Shown here one piece after another: positions 5,789 to 48,101 of a DNA stretch of 64,000 nucleotides. Numbering within the stretch: the first letter of the stretch is position 1; each line of letters opens with the position of its first letter. Location of the stretch: NCBI RefSeq assembly GCF_003991155.1, contig NZ_CP031293.1. One strand, given 5' to 3'. The translations under genes were made by a program, and so were the position numbers. The stretch is from Escherichia coli. GTDB lineage: Bacteria > Pseudomonadota > Gammaproteobacteria > Enterobacterales > Enterobacteriaceae. The notes beneath the pieces were generated by a model, which saw nothing but the letters and a program-made list of their open reading frames with translations, was not told the DNA's origin and did not search any database.

Positions 5789-6790
5789 TGGTTGCCTCCG
5801 GAGCAGTTTGCGGTAATGCCGTTCCCGGGAATGGATTGCCAGTGCGGGGACTGTGGAGCTTAATTCCGGTGTTGGTGGCCTTTCCGTTGATTTTGAGCCA
5901 ACAGCCCTCCTGTGACTGACAGGCTGCCTCGTCATTCCATTCGTATCTCCAGTAACAGGGGGTTGTATTGTATTTTAATGTGCCGGTTCAGGCGTGCGTT
6001 TCCCGGCGCGTCTGCACCGGCTTAACCAAATTCAACAGGGATAAAATAGTGTAAATAACCGAAGTATTACTTGAAGAATCGGGGGAAGCATCCGGGGTTT
6101 TATTCAACAGGCATGGGAGGCTCCGGCTCTGACAGACATTGTACTGTGGAATGTTGTTACAGGTTGGGGCGGCAACCGTGCCAGGAGACCATGAGCCGTT
6201 CACGGCATTAAAGGCCACACTTCAGTCGTTTACATTCCCTGTGGTGGCAGGCATCTTCCGTTAAGGCGTCAGAGCGTTACCAACGTTATGTTGTCATGGC
6301 TCACCTTTCATAGTCGATGCTTATCTGGTGACTGAAACTAGCCGCAGATAAAGAGTGTGAAGTTGATACCATGGAGTGGAGTGACGTGCAGGCAGGAGAT
6401 TCGCTCTATGCAGGGTTGTGAGATGAATTCAAACCGGCTGTCAGCGCCAGTAATATTTGAAGATTCGTCCGGTTGTTATCCAGTGTGCATTAAAAACCCA
6501 GACATTATGGACAATACAACGGCTTCCATAACAGGGAGGAGCCTGTTTATTATCCGGGCGTAATGACTAACCTTTGTGGGCTTTTTCCCGTCGTGCTTTT
6601 AACGTTGAAGGCATTTTCTGCCTGCCGATTCAGGACAGCGACAAAAGCCATATCAGACTATTGGTCAATGATGACCAGCGTCTGGAGTAGATGATAAGCC
6701 AAATTGATAAACTGGAATATGTGATGAAAGTGCAACGTAATCAGTCCAATCCGACGATGTTTAACAAGAGTACGGTGTTTTTTCAGTAAG

Positions 6791-7573
6791 TCATTCGTCT
6801 TCTGAATCAGGTGTAATGATCTTTACAGAAGCATTCCGGCAGTGCGTAACATAATCTGCCGGTAACGGACGCTCGCTAATCAGAACATCAAATGCAGAGA
6901 GCGGTGCGAGGCTGGCAGAGGCTACTTCATCGAACAAGGCGTGGCGGGCGAGCAAAATTTTCCTTAGTCCACGGGCCATCGCTTTACGCTTAGTGGCAAG
7001 ATCTTCGGGATTAAACCAGCTGACGCCAAAGTGATCATGTACACCGCTGGCGGAAATAAATATTTTTCGCGGATTGAGAGAGTCTAATGGCGAAGAGTTA
7101 CTGGCATCGTAAAAAGCATCACTTCTGGCACGATACGTACCACCACAAAGTATTGCTGTCACATTAGGTTTTTCATTCAACGCAACAAAGACACGATGTG
7201 AGTAACAGATGCCAGTGAAGGTGATTGCATCCGGGATCATGCTTATAACGAGCGGTATCTCCTGGCCATTATCAAAGAAGATCAGATCATTTTCATTAAC
7301 CATTCCGGCGGCCAGAATTGCAATAGGTAAGTCATCACGATGATTTCTCGGAACGTCCTGGATTACTGGCATGGATGGTGCGGGTTTATGCACCATTACA
7401 ATATAGCCACCCAGTAGGGTCAGTGGCAGAGGTTCATCTTCCTGATGGAGATCGCGACGAATAGTCATTACAGAAACTTCCAGCATTCGTGCCGCGTCTT
7501 TCAAATGGATTCTGTCGGTTTTCTTAAGTATTTCAATCAAACGTCGGATACGCTCTTTTTGCTTCGTTTCCAT
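6791..7573 (-). CDS. deoQ: DeoR-family transcriptional repressor of the deoxyribose operon
   Basis: N-terminal helix-turn-helix (ERIRRLIEILKK...LKDAARMLEVSVMTIRRDL) plus DeoR-type sugar-binding domain, divergent from a deoK-deoP-deoX operon. ATG at 7573 has a GGAGAG ribosome-binding site; the ORF-track start at 7576 is a TTG. Confidence 0.8.
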   Translation of the reverse strand: METKQKERIRRLIEILKKTDRIHLKDAARMLEVSVMTIRRDLHQEDEPLPLTLLGGYIVMVHKPAPSMPVIQDVPRNHRDDLPIAILAAGMVNENDLIFFDNGQEIPLVISMIPDAITFTGICYSHRVFVALNEKPNVTAILCGGTYRARSDAFYDASNSSPLDSLNPRKIFISASGVHDHFGVSWFNPEDLATKRKAMARGLRKILLARHALFDEVASASLAPLSAFDVLISERPLPADYVTHCRNASVKIITPDSEDE

Positions 7574-7588
7574 CAACTCTCTCCGTAA

Positions 7589-7608
7589 AATGTTATAAAA
7601 ATAACATT
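7589..7608. promoter_or_regulatory. Inverted repeat AATGTTAT-AAAA-ATAACATT in the deoQ/deoK divergent control region; candidate operator
   Basis: 8-bp arms with a 4-bp spacer read directly from the sequence; TGTTAT-like motifs recur closer to deoK (about 7810-7850). Assigning it to DeoQ is inference. Confidence 0.3.
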
Positions 7609-7875
7609 ATGGCATTAGTAAACATTGTTTTAGTTACCATACTATACGACCGACCCTTTGAAATGAAAAGGGTATAGACTGCTGAATTTTCGGTATTAAT
7701 CCTGTTAGGTTGCTTATGATTAGATAGTGTTAGCCTGAGTGATAAGACTGGAAGTCTATTAAATAAACATCGGGTTGATGTGCTAATCGCGATCTCAGTC
7801 ACAAATGATGCAAAAGTAACATGCTAATGTTATTTAAATACCATTGTTATGCGAAAGTTTATAAGAGGTAGTGAA

Positions 7876-8796
7876 ATGGACATTGCAGTTATTGGTTCCA
7901 ATATGGTGGATCTCATTACTTACACTAATCAGATGCCTAAAGAAGGAGAAACTCTGGAAGCACCTGCCTTCAAAATCGGATGTGGTGGGAAAGGTGCTAA
8001 TCAAGCGGTGGCGGCGGCTAAATTGAATTCAAAAGTCCTGATGCTGACTAAAGTAGGTGATGATATTTTTGCGGATAATACTATTCGTAATCTCGAATCA
8101 TGGGGAATTAATACCACTTATGTTGAGAAAGTCCCCTGTACCAGCAGTGGTGTTGCACCGATCTTTGTTAATGCCAACTCGAGCAATAGTATATTAATAA
8201 TTAAGGGAGCGAATAAATTTCTTTCCCCGGAAGATATCGATCGAGCTGCAGAAGATCTGAAAAAATGCAAATTGATCGTTTTACAACTGGAAGTTCAACT
8301 GGAAACAGTTTACCACGCGATTGAGTTTGGTAAGAAAAATGGTATTGAAGTGTTATTAAATCCGGCTCCGGCATTGCGTGAGTTAGATATGTCTTATGCC
8401 TGCAAATGTGATTTCTTTATCCCGAATGAAACAGAACTGGAAATATTAACCGGTATGTCGGTTGATACTTATGATCATATTCGTTTGGCCGCACGTTCGT
8501 TAGTTGATAAAGGGCTGAACAATATTATTGTTACCATGAGCGAAAAAGGCGCATTATGGATGACCCGCGATCAGGAAGTCCATGTTCCTGCATTCAAAGT
8601 AAATGCTGTTGATACTAGTGGCGCTGGTGACGCATTTATTGGTTGCTTTTCCCATTATTATGTTCAAAGCGGTGATGTTGAAGCCGCTTTGAAAAAAGCC
8701 GCTCTCTTTGCCGCTTTCAGCGTCACAGGGAAAGGTACGCAATCATCTTATCCGAGTATTGAACAATTTAATGAATTTTTAACCTTAAACGAATAA
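7876..8796 (+). CDS. deoK: Deoxyribokinase (ribokinase/PfkB family)
   Basis: PfkB-family motifs (GGKGANQAVAAA; DTSGAGDAF). ATG at 7876 after an AGAGGTAG ribosome-binding site gives the 306-aa length I recall for DeoK; gene order deoQ / deoK-deoP-deoX. Confidence 0.85.
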   Translation: MDIAVIGSNMVDLITYTNQMPKEGETLEAPAFKIGCGGKGANQAVAAAKLNSKVLMLTKVGDDIFADNTIRNLESWGINTTYVEKVPCTSSGVAPIFVNANSSNSILIIKGANKFLSPEDIDRAAEDLKKCKLIVLQLEVQLETVYHAIEFGKKNGIEVLLNPAPALRELDMSYACKCDFFIPNETELEILTGMSVDTYDHIRLAARSLVDKGLNNIIVTMSEKGALWMTRDQEVHVPAFKVNAVDTSGAGDAFIGCFSHYYVQSGDVEAALKKAALFAAFSVTGKGTQSSYPSIEQFNEFLTLNE

Positions 8797-8823
8797 TCAT
8801 CCTGCACAGTTAAAGGTAGCACT

Positions 8824-10140
8824 ATGAACGATAAAAACATCATTCAGATGCCTGATGGGTATCTGAATAAGACTCCCTTGTTCCAGTTTATTTTGTTATC
8901 GTGTTTATTCCCGCTATGGGGATGCGCAGCTGCATTAAATGACATATTAATCACTCAATTCAAAAGTGTATTTTCGCTAAGTAACTTTGCTTCAGCATTG
9001 GTGCAGAGCGCATTTTATGGAGGTTATTTTTTAATTGCAATACCAGCATCCCTTGTGATTAAAAAGACCAGTTATAAGGTGGCAATTTTAATTGGCCTGA
9101 CGCTGTATATTGGTGGTTGTACACTTTTTTTCCCTGCCTCGCATATGGCAACCTACACTATGTTCCTTGCAGCTATTTTTGCGATTGCGATTGGCCTGAG
9201 TTTCCTTGAAACTGCAGCGAACACATACAGTTCAATGATCGGTCCAAAAGCCTATGCCACATTGCGGCTCAATATCAGCCAGACCTTTTATCCGATTGGT
9301 GCTGCGTCTGGTATTTTATTGGGCAAATATCTGGTTTTCTCCGAGGGGGAAAGCCTTGAAAAGCAGATGTCAGGAATGAACGCCGAGCAAATTCACAACT
9401 TTAAGGTGCTGATGTTAGAGAACACCCTTGAACCGTATAAGTATATGATTATGATTCTGGTTGTGGTCATGGTGTTGTTCCTTTTAACCCGCTTCCCAAC
9501 CTGTAAAGTGGCACAGACAAGTCACCATAAACGCCCGTCAGCAATGGATACGCTGCGCTATCTAGCTAGAAATCCGCGCTTTCGTCGCGGTATTGTGGCG
9601 CAGTTCCTTTATGTGGGTATGCAGGTCGCAGTATGGTCATTTACCATCCGTCTGGCGCTGGAGTTGGGCGATATCAACGAACGTGATGCTTCAAACTTCA
9701 TGGTCTATAGCTTTGCCTGCTTCTTTATTGGCAAGTTTATAGCCAATATCCTTATGACGCGTTTTAATCCGGAAAAAGTATTGATTCTCTATTCCGTTAT
9801 AGGGGCGCTGTTCCTGGCATATGTTGCACTGGCTCCAAGTTTCAGCGCGGTCTATGTCGCCGTCCTGGTAAGTGTTTTGTTTGGCCCTTGCTGGGCGACG
9901 ATCTATGCAGGAACACTGGATACAGTTGATAACGAACATACAGAAATGGCAGGAGCAGTCATTGTTATGGCTATTGTCGGTGCCGCGGTGGTTCCGGCAA
10001 TTCAGGGATATATTGCAGATATGTTCCACTCACTACAGCTTTCATTCCTGGTTTCTATGCTCTGCTTTGTCTATGTCGGAGTCTACTTCTGGCGTGAAAG
10101 CAAAGTACGTACCGCACTGGCTGAAGTCACAGCGTCCTGA
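8824..10140 (+). CDS. deoP: Deoxyribose permease (FucP-like MFS transporter)
   Basis: 438-aa polytopic membrane protein with fucose-permease-like features, immediately downstream of deoK. Confidence 0.85.
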   Translation: MNDKNIIQMPDGYLNKTPLFQFILLSCLFPLWGCAAALNDILITQFKSVFSLSNFASALVQSAFYGGYFLIAIPASLVIKKTSYKVAILIGLTLYIGGCTLFFPASHMATYTMFLAAIFAIAIGLSFLETAANTYSSMIGPKAYATLRLNISQTFYPIGAASGILLGKYLVFSEGESLEKQMSGMNAEQIHNFKVLMLENTLEPYKYMIMILVVVMVLFLLTRFPTCKVAQTSHHKRPSAMDTLRYLARNPRFRRGIVAQFLYVGMQVAVWSFTIRLALELGDINERDASNFMVYSFACFFIGKFIANILMTRFNPEKVLILYSVIGALFLAYVALAPSFSAVYVAVLVSVLFGPCWATIYAGTLDTVDNEHTEMAGAVIVMAIVGAAVVPAIQGYIADMFHSLQLSFLVSMLCFVYVGVYFWRESKVRTALAEVTAS

Positions 10141-10151
10141 GGAGAACCGTT

Positions 10152-11165
10152 ATGAGTACGCGTATTAATTTGTGGCGGGCGCTTTTTGGCGAGAAACCTC
10201 GTATCTTGCTGGAAAATAGTGATTTTACTGTCACGTCTTTTCGATATGACAGCGGTGTCGAGGGGCTTAAAATTGCAAACAGTCGTGGACATTTGATTAT
10301 TCTTCCCTGGATGGGGCAGATGATTTGGGATGCGCAATTTGATGGACACGGCCTCACCATGTGCAATATGTTTCGCCAGCCTAAACCGGCGACAGAGGTG
10401 ATAGAGACCTATGGCTGTTTTGCTTTTCATTCAGGTTTGCTGGCTAATGGCTGCCCATCTGCGGAAGATACTCATCTGCTACACGGTGAAATGGCCTGTG
10501 CCGCGATGGATGAAGCATGGCTGGAATTAGACGGAGATATGTTACGCCTTAACGGGCGTTACGAGTATGTAATGGGTTTCGGTCATCATTATCTGGCTCA
10601 GCCAACAGTGGTCCTTCACAAATCCTCTACACTGTTCGATATTAAGATGGCCGTAACCAATCTGGCTTCTGTAGATATGCCACTACAATATATGTGCCAC
10701 ATGAATTATGCATATATACCAAATGCTACATTCAGCCAGAATATCCCGGACGAAATATTAAGATTGCGTGAATCAGTGCCTTCGCATGTTAATCCCACCG
10801 CTCAGTGGCTGGCGTTTAATCAACGGATTATGCAGGGAGAAGCCTCTCTGTCGACGCTGAGTCAACCGGAATTTTATGATCCAGAAATTGTCTTCTTTGC
10901 AGACAAACTGGACGCTTATACAGATCAGCCAGAGTTTCGCATGATCTCTCCCGATGGCACCACGTTTGTTACTCGTTTCTACAGTGCTGAACTAAATTAT
11001 GTGACACGCTGGATCCTTTATAACGGAGAGCAACAGGTAGCCGCCTTTGCATTACCTGCAACCTGTCGGCCTGAGGGGTATCTTGCCGCGCAACGTAATG
11101 GCACGCTGATTCAGGTTGCACCGCAGCAAACGCGCACTTTTACAGTCACCACAGGAATTGAATAA
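10152..11165 (+). CDS. deoX: Aldose-1-epimerase-like protein of the deoxyribose operon
   Basis: 337 aa, GAGGAGAA ribosome-binding site, last gene of the deoK operon. Function inferred from operon context and my recollection of the described deoK operon. Confidence 0.7.
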   Translation: MSTRINLWRALFGEKPRILLENSDFTVTSFRYDSGVEGLKIANSRGHLIILPWMGQMIWDAQFDGHGLTMCNMFRQPKPATEVIETYGCFAFHSGLLANGCPSAEDTHLLHGEMACAAMDEAWLELDGDMLRLNGRYEYVMGFGHHYLAQPTVVLHKSSTLFDIKMAVTNLASVDMPLQYMCHMNYAYIPNATFSQNIPDEILRLRESVPSHVNPTAQWLAFNQRIMQGEASLSTLSQPEFYDPEIVFFADKLDAYTDQPEFRMISPDGTTFVTRFYSAELNYVTRWILYNGEQQVAAFALPATCRPEGYLAAQRNGTLIQVAPQQTRTFTVTTGIE

Positions 11166-11204
11166 CCACTCAAGGCCTGAACAGCGGCGCGCTTATCGTT
11201 AAGG

Positions 11205-11383
11205 TAAGCGCGTTTTTTACCCGCCAGGACAAGACTATGATAGCGTTGCCCTTATAGACGATCACATTATCGTCCACTCCAAATTTGCGCAACTACTGTA
11301 GAGTGGTGTACTCCACAGCTTCTTTGAGGAGCTTAACCTCCATTGTTTTCTTACCGAGCAAGCACTGCAACTCTTTTATTTAT
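11205..11383. repeat. About 180-bp segment, copy A of a direct repeat (second copy at 37163..37348, roughly 90% identity by eye); IS-associated
   Basis: Shared strings include GACAAGACTATGATAGCGTTGCCCTTATAGACGATCACATTATCGTCCACTCC and AACTACTGTAGAGTGGTGTACTCC. Copy B encodes, on the minus strand, the 3' end of an IS3/IS66-type OrfA-like gene. Confidence 0.6.
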
Positions 11384-11585
11384 TTGTAGTGGTCAACAAA
11401 AACTGGTCACAATTTCAGTTTTTTTCCAGTATCTATTTTCCGATTCGTTCGGCGGTAATCCACCGTTATATTCATGAGGCCGGAGTGCACTATAAAAGTG
11501 TATGCGTAAACCGACTGCTGTATGTAGCCATTAAGCCAGTATTGGTAACATAGGTACCCACCTTTTCAACTAGTGGACACCTGTT

Positions 11586-11870
11586 ATGGAACAAAAAACA
11601 TTATCAGCTGAACCCCGCAGGTTATTTTCAAATGAGTTTAAACTTCAAATGGTTAAACTGGCTTTACAACCAAGGGGTTCTGTTGCCCGTATTGCCCGGG
11701 AGCATGATATCAATGATAATCTTCTGTTCAAATGGCTCAGGCTCTCGCTGATCAAAGGGCGTATATCACGGCGTCTTCCGGTAACGAACTCTTCTGGCAT
11801 TGGCGTTGAATTATTACCTGTGGAGATGACGCTGGATGAGCGGCCTTACCCCGTTTTTTACGCGAGGTAA
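11586..11870 (+). mobile_element. IS66-family orf1 (TnpA-like accessory protein) fragment; downstream tnpB and tnpC absent
   Basis: EFKLQMVKLALQPRGSVARIAREHDINDNLLFKW parallels the intact IS66 orf1 later in the window (EFKIALVEQSLQPGACVAQIARENGINDNLLFNW). No tnpB/tnpC follow, so this is a remnant. Confidence 0.55.
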
Positions 11871-12085
11871 TTATGAAGATCAATGACTAGCCGTCGAACC
11901 GCGTGCATGAACTGCTGCACTGAAACTTCTCAGCTGTAAAATAATCCTTACGCTACGTACTTCTCGGAGCGCTTACGATTAATCGGATGCAGTCCTGACT
12001 GGAAGAAAGAAAAATGGAGAAAATAAGAGGAATTAATATCCTCCACGTTCCTGAAATCCTGGAGGATATTAATGTCATCAAAATA

Positions 12086-13342
12086 TTAGCGAACGATAAT
12101 CCCTAACAAAATACCCAGTGCGCCAAAGTCAGCATCACTGAAGGTGGTGTTAGCAAAACCAATATCACCCAGCACCGGCAATAAGAATACTGGCAGGAAG
12201 GTAATAAGCAAGCCCTGAGCGAAGGCACCCAAAATCGCACCACGACGTCCACCCGTTGCATTACCGAATACCCCTGCAGCTGCACCTACGAAGAAGTGCG
12301 GCACCACACCAGGAATAATCACGATCATGTTCAGCAGATACAACGTGAACATACCGATTAAACCTGCAGCAAAGCTACTCAGGAAACCAACCAGTACAGC
12401 GTTAGGTGCGTAAGGGAAGACGACCGGGCAATCGAGAGCAGGTCTGGCATTCGGAACCAGCTTGTCTGAAATACCTTTGAATGCCGGGACAATCTCCGCA
12501 ATCACCATGCGCACACCCTGCAGAATGATGTACACGCCAGCTGCGAAGGTAATGGATTGCATGATAGAGAACATGAACCAGTTTTTACCACCGCTAAGCT
12601 CTTTCACCGCATCTGCACCCGCAAACAGGCACGTCACCAGGAAAATTATGCTCATGGTAAAAGAGATAGCAACCGGCGTGTCGCGCAAGAACAGCAGACT
12701 TTTCGGCACATTCATGTCTTCAGTCGAGTGCTCTTTATTACCAAACTTGCTGCCGATGAAACCGGCCAATACATAAGATAATGTTGAGAAGTGGCCGATG
12801 GCAACGTCATCAGAACCGGTCACTTTCTTCATGTACGGATGCGCAATAGCCGGGAAAAAGACCATTGCCACGCCAACAACCAAAGAGCCAACGGCTATAA
12901 GCGTAACGCCGGTCATGCCTGCTGTTGCCAGAATTACCGCTACCATCATCGACATAAACAACGTGTGATGACCGGTCAGGAAGATAAATTTCCACGGTGT
13001 GAAACGGGCAATCATAATGTTGATAACCATCGCAAAGAACATAATCATCGCCATTTCTTTCCCGAAGCTTTTCTGCGCTACGGAAACAATGGCTTCATTG
13101 TTCGGCACGACACCCTGAATACCAAAGGCATGCTGGAAAATGTTTGCGAAGTCACCCAGTGACGACACAACTAAACCCGCCCCTGCGCCTAAAATCACAA
13201 ACCCCATAATGGTCTTGACGGTACCTTTAATGCATTCGGTTACCGGTTTTTTCTGTGCAATCAGGCCAATCAGGGCGATTAAACCGACCAGCACCGCGGG
13301 TTCGGAAAGTACATCGCTCATCAAAAAACGAAAGAAATCCAT
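12086..13342 (-). CDS. PTS ascorbate-family (SgaT/UlaA-type) transporter subunit IIC
   Basis: 418-aa polytopic membrane protein with SgaT/UlaA-type sequence character; co-oriented with IIB and IIA genes. Confidence 0.85.
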   Translation of the reverse strand: MDFFRFLMSDVLSEPAVLVGLIALIGLIAQKKPVTECIKGTVKTIMGFVILGAGAGLVVSSLGDFANIFQHAFGIQGVVPNNEAIVSVAQKSFGKEMAMIMFFAMVINIMIARFTPWKFIFLTGHHTLFMSMMVAVILATAGMTGVTLIAVGSLVVGVAMVFFPAIAHPYMKKVTGSDDVAIGHFSTLSYVLAGFIGSKFGNKEHSTEDMNVPKSLLFLRDTPVAISFTMSIIFLVTCLFAGADAVKELSGGKNWFMFSIMQSITFAAGVYIILQGVRMVIAEIVPAFKGISDKLVPNARPALDCPVVFPYAPNAVLVGFLSSFAAGLIGMFTLYLLNMIVIIPGVVPHFFVGAAAGVFGNATGGRRGAILGAFAQGLLITFLPVFLLPVLGDIGFANTTFSDADFGALGILLGIIVR

Positions 13343-13354
13343 ATCGCCCCCAGC

Positions 13355-13642
13355 TTACAGTGCGCCTAATTCGGTTAATGCCACGGACAAACGTTCTCTC
13401 ATGGCTTTCTTATCAATCATATTTTCCAGGGCGACGATTTTGCCTGCGACAGACTGCGCGACTAACTGCTCGGCAATATCTTTGGTGCCGACATAGATAT
13501 CACTCGGCGTCCCTTTCGCGGAGCCCAGGTCGACATGATCAACATCAGCGCTGATGGACAAATCCTTCAAAATGCTTTTAATGCTCATTTCCATCATCAG
13601 GCTGGTGCCTAAGCCGTTACCGCAAACCACTGTAATTTTCAT
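13355..13642 (-). CDS. PTS ascorbate-family subunit IIB
   Basis: 95 aa with N-terminal MKITVVCGNGLGTS (catalytic Cys motif of L-ascorbate-family IIB); GAGGAA ribosome-binding site. Confidence 0.8.
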   Translation of the reverse strand: MKITVVCGNGLGTSLMMEMSIKSILKDLSISADVDHVDLGSAKGTPSDIYVGTKDIAEQLVAQSVAGKIVALENMIDKKAMRERLSVALTELGAL

Positions 13643-13657
13643 AAATGTTCCTCAGAA

Positions 13658-14101
13658 TTAATAGCGCGCAATAACAGACAAAATGTCCTGCGTCGTTTTG
13701 GCCGTCAAAATAGCCTGTATGTCTTTTTCGTTATCGAATAACTTGGCGAGTTGAGAAATCGCTTCAATGTGGCTGGTACTGTCGGTTGCAGCCAGCACAA
13801 TCAGTAATTTCACTGGATCGTTTTCATCGGCATCAAAATTCACACCTGAAGGGATCAGGGTCAGTGCTAATGACAGCTTGTTAGCCCCCTCTTCCGGGCG
13901 CGCATGAGGCATCGCAATACCAGGGCCAACCACATAGTACGGACCGATAGTGTCGTGCGAGTGATAGATCGCATCAACATAACGCGGTTCGATAGAACCG
14001 TTTTCAATCAACGGTCGGCATGAAATCGCCACGGCTTCCCGCCAGTCTTTGACCTGTTCCACGACCTGAACGACCTCTGTATTTAATAGATTTTTTAACA
14101 T
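13658..14101 (-). CDS. PTS subunit IIA (mannitol/fructose-type IIA fold, as in UlaC/SgaA)
   Basis: 147 aa with the conserved histidine region (GIAMPHAR); GGGAG ribosome-binding site; first gene of the IIA-IIB-IIC operon. Confidence 0.8.
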   Translation of the reverse strand: MLKNLLNTEVVQVVEQVKDWREAVAISCRPLIENGSIEPRYVDAIYHSHDTIGPYYVVGPGIAMPHARPEEGANKLSLALTLIPSGVNFDADENDPVKLLIVLAATDSTSHIEAISQLAKLFDNEKDIQAILTAKTTQDILSVIARY

Positions 14102-14371
14102 ACGACTGATAACTCCCGATGATAATTAACAGGAGAGTAGATATTTTACGCATTAATTAATGTGATGATTGTCGCATTTGATAGCGCTATCTGATAACGC
14201 TACCAATCTTTGTGATAGCGCTATCATTTCTCTGCCGCCATGCTTTGGCTATATTCGGTTCCTGCATATACAATGCAACAGGATATTTGCTACCGTGGGC
14301 AAAAACTGGAAAGAGTAATGGTGAAATAAAAGTAATGAAAACAGCTGGTTGTAATTATCCATGGAGTCGAA

Positions 14372-15403
14372 ATGGAAAAAACACGTAAGCGCCGTGGTAC
14401 CGGACGGGTGACGCTGCAGGAGGTCGCTAACTTTGCAGGTGTCGGAACCATGACCGTTTCCCGCGCGCTGAGAACACCGGAACAGGTTTCTGACAAGCTG
14501 AGGGAAAAGATAGAACAGGCCGTAGAAGAGTTGGGTTATATTCCCAACAGAACTGCTGGCGCCCTTGCATCTGGTCACAGTCATACAGTCGCCGTACTGG
14601 TTCCTTCCCTGACAGATAAAGCCAGCTCCCGCTTTATGCAGTCATTACAGCAGGTGCTTAATAAAAATGAATTCCAGCTACTGCTTGGGTGTCATGAGTA
14701 TAATCAGCTCAAAGAAGCTGAAATTCTGATGACGCTTCTTCAAGGCAACCCGGCGGCGTTAGTTATTTTTGGTTCTCAGTTGGCTGATAAAACTCACCAG
14801 ATACTCGAGAAAACAAATATACCTACCATTAACGTTATCGGTTCCCCTTTCAGTCCGGCTCAAATTACCATCGAAACAGCATTTTTTGAAGCATCACATA
14901 AACTGACCGAACATCTGCTGGAGCAGGGTTATAAGAATATCGGATTTATCGGTGCGCATATGGACAACCGCCTGCAACGTCAGCAACTGAACGGCTGGCA
15001 TAAAGCAATGCTGAGCCATTACCAGAACACTGATCTTGTTATCACCATGCCGGATGCCGCAAGTCTGCAATTGGGGCGTTACGCATTAAACGAGATATTA
15101 CTGCGACAACCAGAGCTGGATGCTGTGATTTGCAGCCACGAAGAGATTGCGCTGGGTATAATGTTTGAGTGCCAGCGGCGTTTGTTAAAAATCCCTGGAA
15201 ATATCGCTGTAGCTTGTCTTGACGGTTCAGACAATTGCGATCAAACACACCCAACTTTGACATCCATCCGTATTGACTACAAAAAAATGGGGATAGAGAC
15301 AGGTAAGTTACTGATTGGACTATTGAATAATAATCATGATGAATCAGAAGAGTCGCGTATCGTGCAATTCAACTACCAGATAGAATTACGTCAGAGTACA
15401 TGA
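14372..15403 (+). CDS. LacI-family transcriptional regulator, divergent from the PTS operon
   Basis: N-terminal helix-turn-helix (VTLQEVANFAGVGTMTVSRALR) plus periplasmic-binding-protein-like sugar-binding domain. The true start may be the GTG at about 14410. Confidence 0.8.
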   Translation: MEKTRKRRGTGRVTLQEVANFAGVGTMTVSRALRTPEQVSDKLREKIEQAVEELGYIPNRTAGALASGHSHTVAVLVPSLTDKASSRFMQSLQQVLNKNEFQLLLGCHEYNQLKEAEILMTLLQGNPAALVIFGSQLADKTHQILEKTNIPTINVIGSPFSPAQITIETAFFEASHKLTEHLLEQGYKNIGFIGAHMDNRLQRQQLNGWHKAMLSHYQNTDLVITMPDAASLQLGRYALNEILLRQPELDAVICSHEEIALGIMFECQRRLLKIPGNIAVACLDGSDNCDQTHPTLTSIRIDYKKMGIETGKLLIGLLNNNHDESEESRIVQFNYQIELRQST

Positions 15404-17002: not shown

Positions 17003-18775
17003 ATGCAGCACCGGCAGAAAAACATTCTGACGAAAACGTCCCTTTTATCCCGTGCGTTGTCTGTCCCCTGTTGTGATATGTTCCGGCGCGGCTCTCCGTG
17101 GATATGCTATCTCTCCCTCTCCGTTTTTTCTGGTTGTTTCATCCCCGCATTTTCGTCTCCGGCAGCCATGCTGTCTCCGGGTGACCGCAGTGCAATTCAG
17201 CAGCAACAGCAGCAGTTGCTGGATGAAAACCAGCGTCAGCGTGATGCGCTGGAGCGCAGTGCGCCGCTGACCATCACGCCGTCTCCGGAAACGTCTGCCG
17301 GTACTGAAGGTCCCTGCTTTACGGTGTCAAGCATTGTTGTCAGTGGGGCCACCCGACTGACGTCTGCAGAAACCGACAGACTGGTGGCACCGTGGGTGAA
17401 TCAGTGTCTGAATATCACGGGGCTGACCGCGGTCACGGATGCCGTGACGGACGGCTATATACGCCGGGGATATATCACCAGCCGGGCCTTTCTGACAGAG
17501 CAGGACCTTTCAGGGGGCGTACTGCACATAACGGTCATGGAAGGCAGGCTGCAGCAAATCCGGGCGGAAGGCGCTGACCTTCCTGCCCGCACCCTGAAGA
17601 TGGTTTTCCCGGGAATGGAGGGGAAGGTTCTGAACCTGCGGGATATTGAGCAGGGGATGGAGCAGATTAATCGTCTGCGTACGGAGCCGGTACAGATTGA
17701 AATATCGCCCGGTGACCGTGAGGGATGGTCGGTGGTGACACTGACGGCATTGCCGGAATGGCCTGTCACAGGGAGCGTGGGCATCGACAACAGCGGGCAG
17801 AAGAATACCGGTACGGGGCAGTTAAATGGTGTCCTTTCCTTTAATAATCCTCTGGGGCTGGCTGACAACTGGTTTGTCAGCGGGGGACGGAGCAGTGACT
17901 TTTCGGTGTCACATGATGCGAGGAATTTTGCCGCCGGTGTCAGTCTGCCGTATGGCTATACCCTGGTGGATTACACGTATTCATGGAGTGACTACCTCAG
18001 CACCATTGATAACCGGGGCTGGCGGTGGCGTTCCACGGGAGACCTGCAGACTCACCGGCTGGGACTGTCGCATGTCCTGTTCCGTAACGGGGACATGAAG
18101 ACAGCACTGACCGGAGGTCTGCAGCACCGCATTATTCACAATTATCTGGATGATGTTCTGCTTCAGGGCAGCAGCCGTAAACTCACTTCATTTTCTGTCG
18201 GGCTGAATCACACACACAAGTTTCTGGGTGGTGTCGGAACACTGAATCCGGTATTCACACGGGGGATGCCCTGGTTCGGCGCAGAAAGCGACCACGGGAA
18301 AAGGGGAGACCTGCCCGTAAATCAGTTCCGGAAATGGTCGGTGAGTGCCAGTTTTCAGCGCCCCGTCACGGACAGGGTGTGGTGGCTGACCAGCGCTTAT
18401 GCCCAGTGGTCACCGGACCGTCTTCATGGTGTGGAACAACTGAGCCTCGGGGGTGAGAGTTCAGTGCGTGGCTTTAAGGAGCAGTATATCTCCGGTAATA
18501 ACGGCGGTTATCTGCGGAATGAGCTGTCCTGGTCTCTGTTCTCCCTGCCATATGTGGGGACAGTCCGTGCAGTGACTGCACTGGACGGCGGCTGGCTGCA
18601 CTCTGACAGAGATGACCCGTACTCGTCCGGCACGCTGTGGGGTGCTGCTGCCGGGCTCAGCACCACCAGTGGTCATGTTTCCGGTTCGTTCACTGCCGGA
18701 CTGCCTCTGGTTTACCCGGACTGGCTTGCCCCTGACCATCTCACGGTTTACTGGCGCGTTGCCGTCGCGTTTTAA
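17003..18775 (+). CDS. cdiB: Two-partner secretion outer-membrane transporter (TpsB; ShlB/FhaC/HecB family)
   Basis: 590 aa with POTRA-containing TpsB character, GGGGAG ribosome-binding site, immediately upstream of a 3288-aa TpsA-type exoprotein with a VENN motif. Confidence 0.9.
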   Translation: MQHRQKNILTKTSLLSRALSVPCCDMFRRGSPWICYLSLSVFSGCFIPAFSSPAAMLSPGDRSAIQQQQQQLLDENQRQRDALERSAPLTITPSPETSAGTEGPCFTVSSIVVSGATRLTSAETDRLVAPWVNQCLNITGLTAVTDAVTDGYIRRGYITSRAFLTEQDLSGGVLHITVMEGRLQQIRAEGADLPARTLKMVFPGMEGKVLNLRDIEQGMEQINRLRTEPVQIEISPGDREGWSVVTLTALPEWPVTGSVGIDNSGQKNTGTGQLNGVLSFNNPLGLADNWFVSGGRSSDFSVSHDARNFAAGVSLPYGYTLVDYTYSWSDYLSTIDNRGWRWRSTGDLQTHRLGLSHVLFRNGDMKTALTGGLQHRIIHNYLDDVLLQGSSRKLTSFSVGLNHTHKFLGGVGTLNPVFTRGMPWFGAESDHGKRGDLPVNQFRKWSVSASFQRPVTDRVWWLTSAYAQWSPDRLHGVEQLSLGGESSVRGFKEQYISGNNGGYLRNELSWSLFSLPYVGTVRAVTALDGGWLHSDRDDPYSSGTLWGAAAGLSTTSGHVSGSFTAGLPLVYPDWLAPDHLTVYWRVAVAF

Positions 18776-18787
18776 GGGATTATTACC

Positions 18788-21700
18788 ATGCATCAGCCTC
18801 CCGTTCGCTTCACTTACCGCCTGCTGAGTTACCTTATCAGTACGATTATCGCCGGGCAGCCGTTGTTACCGGCTGTGGGGGCCGTCATCACCCCACAAAA
18901 CGGGGCTGGAATGGATAAAGCGGCAAATGGTGTGCCGGTCGTGAACATTGCCACGCCGAACGGGGCCGGGATTTCGCATAACCGGTTTACGGATTACAAC
19001 GTCGGGAAGGAAGGGCTGATTCTCAATAATGCCACCGGTAAGCTTAATCCGACGCAGCTTGGTGGACTGATACAGAATAACCCGAACCTGAAAGCGGGCG
19101 GGGAAGCGAAGGGTATCATCAACGAAGTGACCGGCGGTAAGCGCTCACTGCTGCAGGGCTATACGGAAGTGGCCGGCAAAGCGGCGAATGTGATGGTTGC
19201 CAACCCGTATGGTATCACCTGTGACGGCTGTGGTTTTATCAACACGCCGCACGCGACGCTCACCACAGGCAAACCTGTGATGAATGCCGACGGCAGCCTG
19301 CAGGCGCTGGAGGTGACTGAAGGCAGTATCACCATCAATGGCGCGGGCCTGGACGGCACCCGGAGCGATGCCGTATCCATTATTGCCCGTGCAACGGAAG
19401 TGAATGCCGCGCTTCATGCGAAGGATTTAACTGTCACTGCAGGCGCTAACCGGATAACTGCAGATGGTCGCGTCAGTGCCCTGAAGGGCGAAGGTGATGT
19501 GCCGAAAGTTGCCGTTGATACCGGCGCGCTCGGTGGAATGTACGCCAGGCGTATTCATCTGACCTCCACTGAAAGTGGTGTCGGGGTTAATCTGGGTAAC
19601 CTTTATGCCCGCGAGGGCGATATCACCCTGGATGCCAGCGGCAGACTGACTGTCAACAACAGTCTCGCCACGGGGGCCGTCACTGCAAAAGGTCAGGGCG
19701 TCACCTTAACCGGCGACCATAAAGCGGGAGGTAACCTGAGCGTCAGCAGCCGGAGCGATATCGTTCTCAGCAATGGAACGCTTAACAGCGACAAGGACCT
19801 CAGCCTGACCGCCGGCGGCAGAATCACTCAACAGAATGAAAAACTGACTGCCGGCCGGGATGTAACGCTTGCCGCGAAAAACATCACACAGGATACCGCC
19901 AGCCAGATTAACGCGGCCCGCGATATCGTGACTGTCGCCAGTGACACGCTGACAACACAGGGACAGATAACCGCCGGGCAGAATCTCACGGCCAGCGCCA
20001 CCACGCTGACACAGGACGGAATATTGCTGGCGAAAGGTCATGCGGGACTCGATGCCGGCACGCTGAATAACAGTGGTGCTGTTCAGGGGGCTTCCCTGAC
20101 GCTCGGCAGTACAACGCTCAGCAACAGTGGCTCCCTGCTCAGTGGCGGTCCCCTGACCGTGAATACCCGCGACTTTACCCAGAGCGGCCGCACTGGCGCG
20201 AAGGGCAAAGTGGATATCACGGCCAGTGGGAAACTGACCAGTACAGGTTCGCTGGTGAGCGATGATGTACTGGTGCTGAAGGCGCAGGATGTGACACAGA
20301 ACGGTGTGCTGTCCGGCGGCAAAGGGCTGACGGTCAGTGCGCAGGCGCTGAGCTCCGGTAAAAAATCGGTCACCCACAGCGATGCTGCGATGACGCTGAA
20401 TGTGACAACAGTGGCGCTGGACGGGGAAAACAGTGCCGGTGACACCCTCCGGGTTCAGGCAGACAAACTGAGTACCGCAGCGGGCGCACAGCTTCAGAGC
20501 GGTAAAAATCTCAGCATCAACGCCAGAGATGCACGTCTTGCAGGTACGCAGGCAGCACAACAGACCATGGCGGTGAACGCCAGTGAAAAGCTCACCCACA
20601 GCGGGAAAAGCAGCGCCCCGTCGCTCAGCCTCAGTGCGCCGGAACTGACCAGCAGCGGTGTGCTTGTTGGTTCCGCCCTGAATACACAGTCACAGACCCT
20701 GACCAACAGTGGTCTGTTGCAGGGGGAGGCCTCACTCACCGTTAACACACAGAGGCTTGATAATCAGCAGAACGGCACGCTGTACAGTGCTGCAGACCTG
20801 ACGCTGGATATACCGGACATCCGCAACAGCGGGCTTATCACCGGTGATAATGGTTTAACGTTAAACACTGCCTCCCTCAGCAATCCGGGAAAAATCATCG
20901 CTGACACGCTGAACGTCAGGGCGACCACGCTGGATGGTGATGGTCTGTTGCAGGGCGCCGGTGCACTGGCGCTTGCAGGCGACACCCTCTCACAGGGCCG
21001 TAACGGACGCTGGCTGACGGCGGGCGACCTCTCCCTCCGGGGTAAAACACTGCATACCGCAGGGACCACGCAGGGACAGAATCTCACCGTGCAGGCGGAC
21101 AGATGGGCGAACAGTGGTTCCGTGCTGGCAACCGGTAACCTTACTGCTTCGGCAACCGGTCAGTTGACCAGTACCGGCGATATCATGAGCCAGGGTGACA
21201 CCACGCTGAAAGCAGCCACCATGGACAACCGGGGCAGTCTGCTTTCGGCCGGCACGCTCTCCCTTGATGGAAACTCACTGGATAACAGCGGCACTGTCCA
21301 GGGTAACCATGTCACGATTCGCCAGAACAGTGTCACCAACAGTGGCACGCTCACCGGGATAGCCGCGCTGACGCTTGCCGCCCGTATGGCATCCCCTCAA
21401 CCTGCGCTGATGAATAACGGAGGTTCATTGCTGACCAGCGGCGATCTGACAATCACCGCAGGCAGTATTACCAGTTCCGGACACTGGCAGGGCAAACGGG
21501 TGCTGATCACCGCAGACAGTCTGGCAAACAGCGGGGCGATCCAGGCGGCTGACAGCCTGACTGCACGTCTGACGGGTGAGCTCGTCAGCACAGCGGGCAG
21601 CAAAGTCACCTCGAACGGTGAAATGGCGCTCAGTGCACTGAATTTAAGCAACAGCGGACAATGGATTGCAAAAAATCTGACCCTGAAGGCGAACTCACTG

Positions 21701-24700
21701 ACCAGTGCGGGTGACATCACCGGTGTGGATACTCTCACGCTCACGGTGAATCAGACGCTGAACAATCAGGCGAACGGAAAACTGCTCAGTGCAGGTGTGC
21801 TGACGCTGAAGGCAGACAGTGTCACAAACGACGGGCAATTACAGGGAAATGCCACCACCATCACGGCAGGACAACTCACAAACGGCGGGCATCTGCAGGG
21901 CGAAACGCTGACGCTGGCCGCCTCCGGTGGCGTGAACAACCGTTCCGGTGGTGTTCTGATGAGCCGGAATGCACTGAATGTCAGTACTGCGACCCTGAGT
22001 AACCAGGGCACGATACAGGGTGGTGGCGGGGTTTCCCTGAACGCCACAGACCGTCTGCAGAACGACGGCAAAATCCTTTCCGGCAGTAACCTCACGCTGA
22101 CGGCGCAGTTGCTGGCGAACACCGGCAGCGGACTGGTACAGGCTGCCACCCTGCTGCTGGATGTGGTGAATACTGTCAACGGCGGACGCGTACTTGCCAC
22201 CGGCAGTGCCGACGTTAAAGGAACCACGCTGAATAATACCGGTACGCTTCAGGGGGCGGACCTGCTGGTGAATTACCACACATTCAGCAACAGCGGTACC
22301 CTGCTGGGAACCTCCGGGCTTGGCGTCAAGGGCAGTTCACTGCTGCAAAATGGTACAGGGCGGCTGTACAGTGCAGGCAACCTGCTGCTTGACGCTCAGG
22401 ACTTCAGTGGTCAGGGGCAGGTGGTGGCCACCGGTGATGTCACACTGAAACTGATTGCTGCCCTCACGAATCATGGTACCCTGGCCGCAGGGAAAACCCT
22501 TTCCGTCACGTCGCAAAATGCCATCACCAACGGCGGTGTGATGCAGGGTGATGCCATGGTGCTCGGTGCCGGAGAGGCATTCACCAACAATGGAATGCTG
22601 ACTGCCGGTAAAGGCAACAGTGTTTTCAGCGCACAGCGTCTTTTCCTTAACGCACCGGGTTCACTTCAGGCCGGTGGCGATGTGAGTCTGAACAGCCGGA
22701 GTGATATCACCATCAGTGGTTTTACCGGCACGGCAGGCCGTCTGACAATGAATGTGGCCGGTACCCTGCTGAACAGTGCGCTGATTTATGCGGGGAATAA
22801 CCTGAAGCTGTTTACAGACCGTCTGCATAACCAGCATGGTGATATCCTGGCCGGCAACAGTCTGTGGGTACAGAAGGATGCTTCCGGCGGTGCAAACACA
22901 GAGATTATCAATACCTCCGGGAATATTGAGACGCATCAGGGCGATATTGTTGTAAGGACCGGGCATCTTCTGAACCAGCGGGAGGGATTTTCTGCCACAA
23001 CAACAACCCGGACTAACCCCTCATCCATTCAGGGAATGGGAAATGCTCTGGTTGATATTCCCCTTTCCCTTCTTCCTGACGGCAGCTATGGCTATTTCAC
23101 CCGTGAAGTTGAAAATCAGCACGGTACGCCCTGCAACGGGCACGGGGCATGCAATATCACAATGGATACGCTTTATTATTACGCTCCGTTTGCTGACAGT
23201 GCCACACAGCGCTTTCTCAGCAGCCAGAACATCACAACAGTAACCGGTGCTGATAATCCGGCAGGCCGCATTGCGTCAGGGCGTAATCTTTCTGCTGAGG
23301 CTGAACGACTGGAAAACCGGGCGTCATTTATCCTGGCGAATGGGGATATCGCACTTTCGGGCAGAGAGTTAAGCAATCAGAGCTGGCAGACGGGGACAGA
23401 GAATGAATATCTGGTATACCGCTACGACCCGAAAACGTTTTACGGTAGCTATGCCACAGGCTCTCTGGATAAACTGCCCCTGCTGTCACCGGAATTTGAA
23501 AACAATACCATCAGATTTTCACTGGATGGCCGGGAAAAAGATTACACGCCCGGTAAGACGTATTATTCCGTTATTCAGGCGGGCGGGGATGTTAAGACCC
23601 GTTTTACCAGCAGTATCAATAACGGAACAACCACTGCACATGCAGGTAGTGTCAGTCCGGTGGTCTCTGCACCGGTACTGAATACGTTAAGTCAGCAGAC
23701 CGGCGGAGACAGTCTGACACAGACAGCGCTGCAGCAGTATGAGCCGGTGGTGGTTGGCTCTCCGCAATGGCACGATGAACTGGCAGGTGCCCTGAAAAAT
23801 ATTGCCGGAGGTTCGCCACTGACCGGTCAGACCGGTATCAGTGATGACTGGCCACTGCCTTCCGGCAACAATGGATACCTGGTTCCGTCCACGGACCCGG
23901 ACAGTCCGTATCTGATTACGGTGAACCCGAAACTGGATGGTCTCGGACAGGTGGACAGCCATTTGTTTGCCGGACTGTATGAGCTTCTTGGAGCGAAACC
24001 GGGTCAGGCGCCACGTGAAACGGCTCCGTCGTATACCGATGAAAAACAGTTTCTGGGCTCATCGTATTTTCTTGACCGCCTCGGGCTGAAACCGGAAAAA
24101 GATTATCGTTTCCTGGGGGATGCGGTCTTTGATACCCGGTATGTCAGTAACGCGGTGCTGAGCCGGACGGGTTCACGTTATCTCAACGGACTGGGTTCAG
24201 ACACGGAACAGATGCGGTATCTGATGGATAACGCGGCCAGACAACAGAAAGGACTGGGATTAGAGTTTGGTGTGGCGCTGACAGCTGAACAGATTGCTCA
24301 GCTTGACGGCAGCATACTGTGGTGGGAGTCAGCCACCATCAACGGACAGACAGTCATGGTCCCGAAACTGTATCTGTCGCCGGAAGATATCACCCTGCAT
24401 AACGGCAGCGTTATCAGCGGGAACAACGTGCAACTTGCGGGCGGCAATATCACCAACAGCGGCGGCAGCATCAACGCACAGAACGACCTCTCGCTCGACA
24501 GTTCCGGCTATATCGACAACCTGAATGCGGGGCTGATAAGCGCGGGCGGTAGCCTGGACCTGAGCGCCATCGGGGATATCAGCAATATCAGCTCAGTCAT
24601 CAGCGGTAAAACCGTACAACTGGAAAGCGTGAGTGGCAACATCAGCAATATCACCCGGCGTCAGCAATGGAATGCGGGCAGTGACAGCCAATATGGTGGT

Positions 24701-47523: not shown

Positions 47524-48101
47524 ATATCAATACGGTTCTGACGAGCCGCTTACCCTTTAAAAAGGTATAGGTATATAACAGTAATATCTGATCGTAACGG
47601 ACGGACGCTGGAATTAACCGATGACCGCAGCACAGAGAGTAGGGGATGCGGACGGTCAAAGATCGCGGCGTTGGATTTTATAAATCTGTCTCCAGTAGTA
47701 GATGAACTGAATACAAAGTTGCCAGAGAGTGGTCTGTCAGGCAGGGAATCAGAAACTGGATATTATTGACTGGTACATTGTGTCGGGCTGTGTACGTTCT
47801 CCCCGGACAGACAGTCTCAGTTCGTAGAATCTATAAATTACTGCTACTGATGCTGCCGGGGAAAGGCGTAACGAAAAAACAGCCTCCGTTACCGGACAGC
47901 AAGGAGGCTGAATGGAGTTTACAGGATTTGCTTTTTTATAATGTCTGGCCATGCAGTAAAACCGGACAGGTTTTATTATCATGTGAGGTATTCTGACATA
48001 AAATGCTGGATTTTTATTTTGTGACGAATGCTGCAAAATTGAATCTGCACTCTGATGTAACTTTTATCTGTTTCAGTGAAGCATGCCCACAAATTGAGTT
48101 A

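Follow-up and report, generated by a model that had tools for sequence, protein, structure and literature searches.

The stretch of E. coli DNA analysed here (64 kb in length, hereafter the window) carries at positions 6791-11165 a DeoR-type repressor gene divergent from genes for a kinase, a permease and an epimerase-like protein. This raises the question of whether the cluster is the accessory deoK operon of Salmonella and pathogenic E. coli, as the initial annotation had proposed, and whether the palindrome in its divergent control region serves as a repressor site. The region corresponds to deoQKPX, an accessory E. coli regulon for deoxyribose utilisation that has already been described, and we put the probability of the whole explanation, deoQKPX together with repression by DeoQ via three ATGTT-N8-AACAT sites, at roughly 0.85. 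The region runs from the end of the deoQ open reading frame (6791) to that of deoX (11165), and contains the following genes:

6791..7573, minus strand: deoQ, DeoR-family repressor of 260 aa, ATG at 7573 (refined start)
7876..8796, plus strand: deoK, PfkB/ribokinase-family deoxyribokinase of 306 aa
8824..10140, plus strand: deoP, FucP-type MFS permease of 438 aa
10152..11165, plus strand: deoX, DUF4432 protein of 337 aa with a galactose-mutarotase-like fold

This arrangement, deoQ on the minus strand divergent from deoK-deoP-deoX on the plus strand, was borne out by the open reading frames, by the RefSeq gene models and by the order kept in 42/42 loci from other Enterobacterales species. The RefSeq models, which lie on 100% identical DNA, have the same deoQ and deoK starts; deoK begins at ATG 7876 and not at 7849, the upstream ATG at 7849 not being conserved in other species. 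Pfam and NCBIfam matches for all four genes agree with the protein families first named, and both gene identity and synteny are direct observations. The cluster is present in approximately 1,595 of 5,426 complete E. coli genomes.

DeoQ carries an N-terminal helix-turn-helix (Pfam PF08220 HTH_DeoR, 35.4 bits, cut-off 21) and a C-terminal sensor domain (PF00455 DeoRC, 101.2 bits, cut-off 31.8), both above the gathering score, and is a member of the DeoR family of transcriptional regulators. Its score to the NCBIfam DeoR equivalog NF007961 is 230.4 bits, under the curated cut-off of 244, and no other family model exceeds 83 bits. It is 38% identical to DeoR over its length and near-identical in the HTH region, including MTIRRDL; the comparison sequence, which we take to be DeoR, scores 516.6 bits to the equivalog model. 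Because the score falls below the NF007961 cut-off and overall identity is only 38%, DeoQ is to be read, on these comparisons, as the closest paralogue of DeoR and not as DeoR itself. The sequence is identical to UniRef Q67FX4_ECOLX, named DeoQ (E. coli). When E. coli genomes were searched with deoQ DNA by distant-mode blastn, deoR was not among the hits. According to the literature, DeoR and DeoQ differ in inducer and target genes. Palindromic sequences are given as the recognition target of Salmonella DeoQ in a published review on regulators of the DeoR type.

The automatic PGAP names of the locus genes, rbsK and fucP, would instead make the cluster a ribose or fucose utilisation locus, a reading that we regard as extremely improbable. 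The names have some basis, since DeoK (PF00294 PfkB, 213.6 bits) passes the cut-off of the ribokinase model TIGR02152 (369 bits, cut-off 299.65), and DeoP, which has a Pfam MFS_1 match and is by sequence a candidate sugar:H+ symporter, passes that of TIGR00885 for FucP (324.4 bits, cut-off 280.4); moreover, a published pangenome-model paper holds that annotation cannot separate DeoK/DeoP from RbsK/FucP. However, both proteins fail the narrower models, DeoK that for enterobacterial (E. coli) RbsK (NF008353, 251.6 bits vs a cut-off of 341) and DeoP that for E. coli FucP (NF007524, 285.5 bits vs 427), and DeoK is therefore ribokinase-like but not an RbsK orthologue. Database entries submitted under the name of the E. 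coli deo cluster are, furthermore, identical in sequence to these proteins, the exact DeoP sequence being represented by UniRef Q67FX2_ECOLX, and members of the UniRef cluster of DeoK are named Deoxyribokinase. Synteny extends to the Salmonella/Citrobacter deoK locus, with which the cluster shares 94-97% identity, the same range being found for DeoK and the syntenic gene of these genera. Finally, published statements have it that E. coli strains bearing deoQKPX (EAEC 042, Nissle 1917) use deoxyribose, whereas K-12 does not. Automatic annotation still mislabels deoK and deoP as rbsK and fucP.

DeoX matches Pfam PF14486 (DUF4432; 55.4 bits, cut-off 32.5), and a phmmer search against PDB sequences gave no match, so that a fold search was used instead. 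The best PDB fold match of its AlphaFold model (pLDDT 84.5, pTM 0.87) is 3ty1, a putative aldose 1-epimerase (TM 0.73, E 2e-14), and the further top matches, 3mwx, 4bze and 1nsx, are aldose 1-epimerases or galactose mutarotases. A 60%-identical homologue is named 'deoxyribose mutarotase' by one database source, and DeoX is, with support at the level of the fold, a predicted mutarotase-type enzyme. In the pathway proposed from established knowledge of these families, DeoP would import 2-deoxy-D-ribose, DeoX, through its mutarotase fold, probably interconverts ring or anomeric forms of the sugar, DeoK would phosphorylate it to deoxyribose-5-phosphate, and the core-genome aldolase DeoC would cleave the product. 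The rbsDACBK-rbsR system is similar in having a PfkB kinase, a transporter and a ring- or anomer-converting enzyme (the RbsD pyranase there and presumably DeoX here), but it differs in the RbsD fold vs the galactose-mutarotase fold, in an ABC transporter vs an MFS symporter and in a LacI-type vs a DeoR-type repressor.

The equation with the accessory deoK operon holds on UniRef identities, synteny and literature. Gene content and order are shared, for all four genes, with the deoQKPX cluster of Salmonella enterica serovar Typhimurium (Christensen et al. 2003, J Bacteriol 185:6042), and the orthologues of S. enterica subsp. arizonae/diarizonae are 82-96% identical to the proteins of the window. 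No difference was detected from the deoK operon that pathogenic E. coli carry (PAI of strain AL862; Bernier-Febreau et al. 2004; Martinez-Jehanne et al. 2009). The neighbours, a vpe-type PTS locus and cdiA, are the same, DeoQ and DeoP of the window are identical to Q67FX4 and Q67FX2, and the two are one system.

Turning to the control region, the deoQ-deoK spacer is 302 bp long (33% G+C) in E. coli and 324 bp in Salmonella, the length also reported in 2003. The palindrome was found exactly where it had been placed, with AATGTTAT at 7589-7596, AAAA at 7597-7600 and ATAACATT at 7601-7608, and a repeat search returned three related 20-mers, at 7589, 7804 and 7826. They correspond to three sites, none assigned a strand:

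7589..7608: Site 1, AATGTTAT-AAAA-ATAACATT, with the core ATGTT-N8-AACAT at 7590-7607
7805..7822: Site 2, ATGAT-GCAAAAGT-AACAT, half-sites 97% conserved, ending 53 nt before the deoK ATG
7827..7844: Site 3, ATGTT-ATTTAAAT-ACCAT, half-sites 99.5% conserved, ending 31 nt before the deoK ATG

Taken alone the palindrome is weak evidence, because 6.3% of 5,000 dinucleotide shuffles of the 302-bp spacer produce an inverted repeat whose 8-bp arms, 0-8 bp apart, match perfectly, as would suit a functionless chance feature of AT-rich DNA. We nevertheless consider chance origin very improbable, and already disfavoured, since ATGTT and AACAT are essentially invariant at this place in 43 sequences (site 1 half-sites 99.5% conserved) while the surrounding spacer diverges, and the motif occurs twice more, at distances of 215 and 237 bp from site 1. 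Allowing at most one mismatch, ATGTT-N8-AACAT has four matches in the 64-kb window, three of them inside the spacer, where approximately 0.016 are expected. The three sites hold fixed positions in all 43 sequences compared, and their core is 97-99.5% conserved vs 53% for the rest of the spacer; these, too, are observations. The conserved unit consists of two half-sites of 5 bp set 8 bp apart; arms of the full 8 bp are confined to E. coli and a few other species. Site 1 is identical in the second E. coli allele, which is the commoner one, is 95.8% identical over 7500-7950 and keeps all three sites unchanged. The palindrome is therefore real, being both repeated and conserved, and its reading as a plausible repressor site is supported in that it has the look of a conserved operator-type site across the 43 sequences. 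The initial view of the control region stood as regards the operator-type palindrome, but fell short in that this is one of three such sites and the two on the deoK side had been missed.

A different use for the repeat would be at the RNA level, where a hairpin in the 5' leader of deoQ would act on translation or mRNA stability. Site 1 precedes the deoQ start codon by 16 bp and probably belongs to the leader (about +27 to +44), near the Shine-Dalgarno sequence, and the predicted free energy of the hairpin is -4.9 kcal/mol. However, the stem is weak and AU-rich, most species pair only the 5-6 outer bases and leave the inner arms unpaired (e.g., ATGTTCCTTCAGTAACAT), there are no compensatory changes, and Rfam gave no family match in the deo region. 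Since the inner arms are not conserved and there is no covariation, the hairpin reading was rejected and now has next to no probability.

The operator reading gains detail from the promoters that can be proposed around the sites:

7641..7669, minus strand: putative deoQ promoter from a consensus scan, -35 TTTTCA at 7669-7664 and -10 TATAGT at 7646-7641
7785..7806, no strand assigned: CRP-like site AATCGCGATCTCAGTCACAAAT, putative, centred at 7795.5
7822..7830, plus strand: putative extended -10 of the deoK promoter, TGcTAATGT

The ACTATAC block that would hold the deoQ -10 is conserved in 38/43 sequences and missing in five species with short spacers, which leaves this promoter assignment uncertain. 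The CRP-like site, identified at the sequence level only, agrees with the consensus at 14/22 positions, has a perfect TCACA half and is 93% conserved in the 43 sequences, and the block CATG(A/C)TAATGTTA at the deoK -10 is conserved as well. We infer a deoK transcription start near 7837, which would place the CRP-like site at -41.5; for deoQ the predicted start is near 7634 on the minus strand. A simple sigma-70 consensus scan of the spacer found no plus-strand promoter and no -35, and the deoK promoter model therefore draws on conservation and CRP geometry only; a missing -35 is as expected for an activator-dependent promoter. The promoter positions, the CRP site, the binding protein and the role of each site should be taken as the putative parts of the explanation.

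In the proposed mechanism DeoQ would repress the operon via these 18-bp sites of consensus ATGTT-N8-AACAT. The deoK promoter is probably CRP-dependent and of class II; sites 2 and 3 would span about -32 to +8 on it, so that a repressor there would keep RNA polymerase out. Because of this overlap with the likely promoter they are better candidates for repression of deoKPX than site 1, and probably its main operators. Site 1, which adjoins deoQ, is for that reason more likely to mediate autoregulation of deoQ or to act as an auxiliary operator. A DNA loop joining site 1 to sites 2/3 as an obligatory part of the mechanism is unsupported, since sites 1 and 2 are anywhere from 81 to 251 bp apart across species, without conserved helical phase. 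Salmonella and E. coli align at all three operator-type sites, at the CRP-like site and at the Shine-Dalgarno sequences. Three DeoQ operators were reportedly established by experiment in the deoQ-deoK spacer of Salmonella in 2003; the three sites found here may correspond to them, and with operators already reported for the Salmonella orthologue there is nothing new in the finding. Among the papers open to text search, none that mentions DeoQ gives the operator sequences.

The repressor bound at site 1 could also be the chromosomal DeoR, in which case the palindrome would be mainly a DeoR operator and would tie the acquired operon to the core, deoxyribose-5-phosphate-responsive deoCABD regulon. 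DeoR with its deoCABD operators (TGTTAGAA-TTCTAACA) belongs to the same repressor family as DeoQ, the HTH being near-identical, and each of the two systems has several palindromic operators, with outer TGTTA/TAACA half-sites in common. Site 1 matches the DeoR operator (TGTTAGAA-T(T/A)CTAACA, sharing TGTTA...TAACA) at 13/16 positions, the best match in the 64-kb window and closer than that of Salmonella site 1 (10/16, manual count). DeoR is also reported, in the 2003 work on Salmonella, to repress deoKPX, which speaks for this reading. On the other hand, the positions conserved across 43 species are ATGTT/AACAT, including flanking A and T that lie outside the 16-bp DeoR site, whereas the inner DeoR positions (AGAA/TTCT) are not conserved, the inner 6-8 bp of the DeoQ sites being variable, and the same motif recurs at both deoK-side sites. 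We therefore hold a mainly DeoR-directed palindrome to be quite unlikely and retain DeoQ as the probable ligand of all three sites. Binding of both DeoQ and DeoR at site 1 is possible and is compatible with this main explanation, so that site 1 may also bind DeoR.

Site 1 of E. coli differs from that of Salmonella in lying 11 bp closer to the deoQ start and in its extended 8-bp arms, and a possible fourth, weaker site beside site 1, found in many species including Salmonella and Citrobacter, is missing in E. coli. It is conceivable, though unlikely, that E. coli site 1 was remodelled after horizontal transfer (by the 11-bp shift towards the deoQ start, the 8-bp arms, the gain of the 13/16 DeoR match and the loss of the half-conserved fourth site), so that resident DeoR, rather than DeoQ autoregulation, mainly controls deoQ and, through deoQ, the island-borne operon. 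If true, a repressor of the host would here have captured a regulator gene that came in by transfer.

That the cluster was acquired is reflected in its flanks, which differ from those of Salmonella. There it is bordered by ilvN and uhpA, both intact, whereas in E. coli it is part of a genomic island, its ilvN and uhpA-side flanks being truncated:

6563..6789, plus strand: degenerate remnant of the 3' end of ilvN (acetolactate synthase small subunit), running towards deoQ (convergent), a RefSeq pseudogene
11166..11298, plus strand: spacer downstream of deoX, co-transferred with the cluster and homologous to the deoX-uhpA spacer of other species

The ilvN fragment has in-frame stops in its translation and matches the intact ilvN beside deoQ in more than 30 species, and the downstream spacer has 78-85% identity (blastn) to Salmonella, Raoultella and other loci. 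Given these scars, the island copy of E. coli derives from a chromosome with the cluster between ilvN and uhpA. According to published statements the deoK operon sits in pheV-type islands beside vpe; no tRNA gene was found in the 64-kb window.

Because the operon has already been described and the palindrome is one of three conserved sites of repressor-binding type, the finding is correct but ordinary. Its additions are modest: a cross-species consensus for the presumed DeoQ operator, the placing of two of its copies on a putative CRP-dependent deoK promoter, a fold that supports a mutarotase-type activity of DeoX, and scars in the flanks that show the origin of the island copy. It also has value as a positive control, in that a reading made without tools caught a real published operon and one real control element. 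For the organism, the cluster opens up deoxyribose set free from DNA as a substrate for pathogenic E. coli, both intestinal and extraintestinal, and in the cited literature it has been tied to competitiveness and gut colonisation.

ORF calling returned the following ORFs in the deo cluster:

6791-7576, minus strand, ORF of 260/261 aa (regulator, deoQ)
7849-8796, plus strand, ORF (kinase, deoK)
8824-10140, plus strand, ORF (permease, deoP)
10152-11165, plus strand, ORF (deoX)

Many E. coli chromosomes are 100% identical to this DNA, and on the identical DNA RefSeq starts the regulator at the ATG at 7573 and the kinase at 7876. Since ATG 7849 is not conserved across other species and AAGAGG precedes 7876, the divergent spacer was set at 7574-7875 (302 bp, 33% G+C). 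The regulator carries the HTH_DeoR and DeoRC domains and matches the NCBIfam DeoR equivalog over its full length with 230 bits, slightly under the 244-bit cut-off and far above its score to any other family member. The kinase is PfkB/ribokinase-like (TIGR02152, 369 bits) and failed the enterobacterial RbsK model, while the FucP-like permease passed TIGR00885 and failed the E. coli FucP model. In UniRef, the exact-sequence match of the regulator is named ‘DeoQ’ (Q67FX4_ECOLX), the permease is represented by Q67FX2_ECOLX, and near relatives of the kinase are named deoxyribokinase. PGAP names the plus-strand genes rbsK, fucP and ‘aldose 1-epimerase family protein’, an ambiguity of annotation remarked on in a published pangenome-model paper. 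A ribose or fucose locus instead of a deoxyribose one was rejected, because the cluster is identical to and syntenic with the characterised deo cluster. DeoK and DeoP (7876-10140) were given one shared 90% cluster number in the protein collection. This is apparently an artefact, produced by the look-up or by fused gene calls, rather than biology.

E. coli strains with deoQKPX, such as EAEC 042 and Nissle 1917, use 2-deoxy-D-ribose and K-12 does not, and in the literature the deoK operon belongs to pheV-type islands, with the vpe PTS locus and cdiA as its neighbours. The neighbours in the window match those published:

12086-15403, ascorbate-type PTS locus with IIC, IIB and IIA on the minus strand, beside a divergent LacI/GntR-like regulator; corresponds to the vpe locus
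17003-28654, contact-dependent inhibition system, cdiB (ShlB/FhaC family, 590 aa) and cdiA (3,288 aa, annotated as a tRNA nuclease effector)

Families, gene order, exact DeoQ sequence and published neighbours thus agree with the deoQ/deoKPX operon proposed in the initial annotation, and the system is already known. Of 5,426 complete E. coli genomes, 1,598 matched a query spanning the spacer and adjacent gene ends (7500-7950), and 1,595 contained deoQ at a coverage of at least 80%. For comparison, 42 loci were fetched from other Enterobacterales species, including Salmonella arizonae and diarizonae, Citrobacter, Raoultella, Klebsiella indica, Leclercia, Trabulsiella and Edwardsiella, and deoQ is divergent from deoK-deoP-deoX in all of them.

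The palindrome that had been proposed as a repressor site in the divergent region, AATGTTAT-AAAA-ATAACATT, lies exactly at 7589-7608. By itself it is weak evidence, since shuffling the spacer 5,000 times gave an inverted repeat as good in 6.3% of cases. A repeat search, however, recovered three related 20-mers, at 7589, 7804 and 7826, corresponding to these putative DeoQ operators:

7590-7607, site 1, core of the palindrome
7805-7822, site 2
7827-7844, site 3

With at most one mismatch, their consensus ATGTT-N8-AACAT has four matches in the 64 kb, three of them inside the 302-bp spacer, where approximately 0.016 would be expected. In the spacer alignment the half-sites are 97-99.5% conserved, against 72-81% for the inner spacers and only 53% for the central intergenic part; those of site 1 are perfect in 41/43 sequences, and every sequence has 53-54 nt between the end of site 2 and the deoK ATG, and 31-32 nt between the end of site 3 and that codon. 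In the more frequent E. coli allele, which shares 95.8% identity over 7500-7950, none of the three sites is altered, even though it differs right beside site 1. This conservation speaks against a chance palindrome, which was rejected. As judged from the alignment, the conserved unit is the pair of 5-bp half-sites, the 8-bp arms first described being found only in E. coli and a few others, e.g., Klebsiella indica. An RNA hairpin was likewise rejected, given its weak stem (-4.9 kcal/mol), its non-conserved inner arms and the lack of an Rfam match; the sole Rfam match within the window lies elsewhere:

47773-47949, minus strand, AS-pc02, antisense to pHK01_099 (53 bits, gathering score 40)

The site first flagged is therefore a conserved, operator-type candidate, although two promoter-proximal sites had been missed and site 1 is probably not the main deoKPX operator. 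Salmonella, Citrobacter and several other genera (L003, L004, L009, L011 and others among the fetched loci) have a fourth, weaker site (e.g., ATGTGTTTCTGAGAACAT) directly beside site 1, about 20 bp from it; the E. coli window has apparently lost it, since at the equivalent stretch (7609-7625) the left half is poor and the spacer measures 7 bp. The whole window has a general excess of short palindromes: counting 8-bp arms and spacers of 0-8 bp, it contains 21 perfect inverted repeats where dinucleotide shuffles give 8.5 +/- 3.1, and none of the others falls in 6000-12000.

Site 1 (TGTTATAAAAATAACA) agrees with the published DeoR operator, TGTTAGAA-T(T/A)CTAACA, at 13/16 positions, more than any other stretch of the window; sites 2 and 3 agree at 11 and 10. 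A DeoR-only site was considered, but the conserved positions better fit the motif shared by the three sites; DeoR binding may be an additional role of this putative DeoQ operator. According to a published review of DeoR-type regulators, DeoQ recognises palindromes. DeoQ is 38% identical overall to a DeoR sequence that itself reaches 516.6 bits with the DeoR equivalog model, with a nearly identical HTH including MTIRRDL. In Salmonella, cross-repression by DeoR has reportedly been observed; the operator match and the nearly identical HTH make similar operators, and the same cross-repression here, plausible.

Further conserved blocks suggest a promoter model. The block TAATCGCGATCnnAGTCACAAAT (7785-7806) is 93% conserved and resembles a CRP site, its TCACA half being perfect and the other half keeping G5, G7 and A8. 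A putative extended -10 of deoK (TGnTAATGT, 7822-7830) lies within the block CATG(A/C)TAATGTTA and would place the start near 7837 and the CRP-like site at -41.5, in class II geometry. The promoter scan found no -35 match on the plus strand of the spacer, which fits an activator-dependent deoK promoter. Site 2 would cover approximately -32 to -15 and site 3 approximately -10 to +8, as in classical promoter occlusion. On the opposite strand the scan gave:

7669-7641, minus strand, putative deoQ promoter TTTTCA-17-TATAGT

Its -10 is conserved in 38/43 sequences. With a deoQ start near 7634, the leader would contain site 1 at approximately +27 to +44, leaving 16 bp to the start codon, and this position suggests autoregulation or an auxiliary operator. 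In five species (L024, L026, L029, L040 and L043) deoQ and deoK are much closer together, with 185-216 bp between them; these spacers keep all three sites without the conserved ACTATAC block, so the deoQ promoter of these species must be elsewhere. Obligatory looping between sites 1 and 2 is not supported, because their spacing varies from 81 to 251 bp without constant helical phase, in agreement with the ‘independent’ binding to three operators (Kd 54, 2.4 and 20 nM) that Christensen et al. (2003) reportedly found for Salmonella DeoQ.

DeoX matched only DUF4432, and a sequence-only search of the PDB gave no match. Its AlphaFold model, built from a 47-sequence alignment (mean pLDDT 84.5, pTM 0.87), had aldose 1-epimerases and galactose mutarotases as top Foldseek matches in the PDB (3ty1, TM 0.73, E 2e-14; 3mwx, 4bze, 3nre and 1nsx), so that the earlier ‘epimerase-like’ label is right at the fold level. 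A Vibrio homologue, 60% identical, is named ‘deoxyribose mutarotase’ by one database source. Like RbsD of the ribose operon, DeoX may offer the kinase deoxyribose in the appropriate ring or anomeric form.

The flanks bear on the origin of the cluster. Both of them, 238 bp past the deoQ stop (6553-6790) and 133 bp past deoX (11166-11298), align with the flanks of other species at 73-85% identity. In S. arizonae (L003, 1-2400 and 6788-8770), the native order is uhpB-uhpA, deoX-deoP-deoK divergent from deoQ, and ilvN-ilvB, with uhpBA and ilvNB intact. The ilvN piece in the window is a degenerate 3' fragment, a pseudogene with in-frame stops, and its similarity to native ilvN accounts for the 80-90% identity matches in approximately 1,800 E. 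coli genomes that lack the operon. On the other side, the spacer 11166-11298 has its homologue between deoX and uhpA in other species, and between deoX and the PTS locus lies an IS66-type fragment, probably an IS remnant at the module boundary:

11586-11870, short ORF, IS66-family TnpA accessory-like, under the curated cut-off (RefSeq ‘transposase’)

Judging from this homology to the native uhpA/ilvN context, the island copy keeps scars of its donor chromosome, in line with published work that sees the cluster as horizontally acquired.
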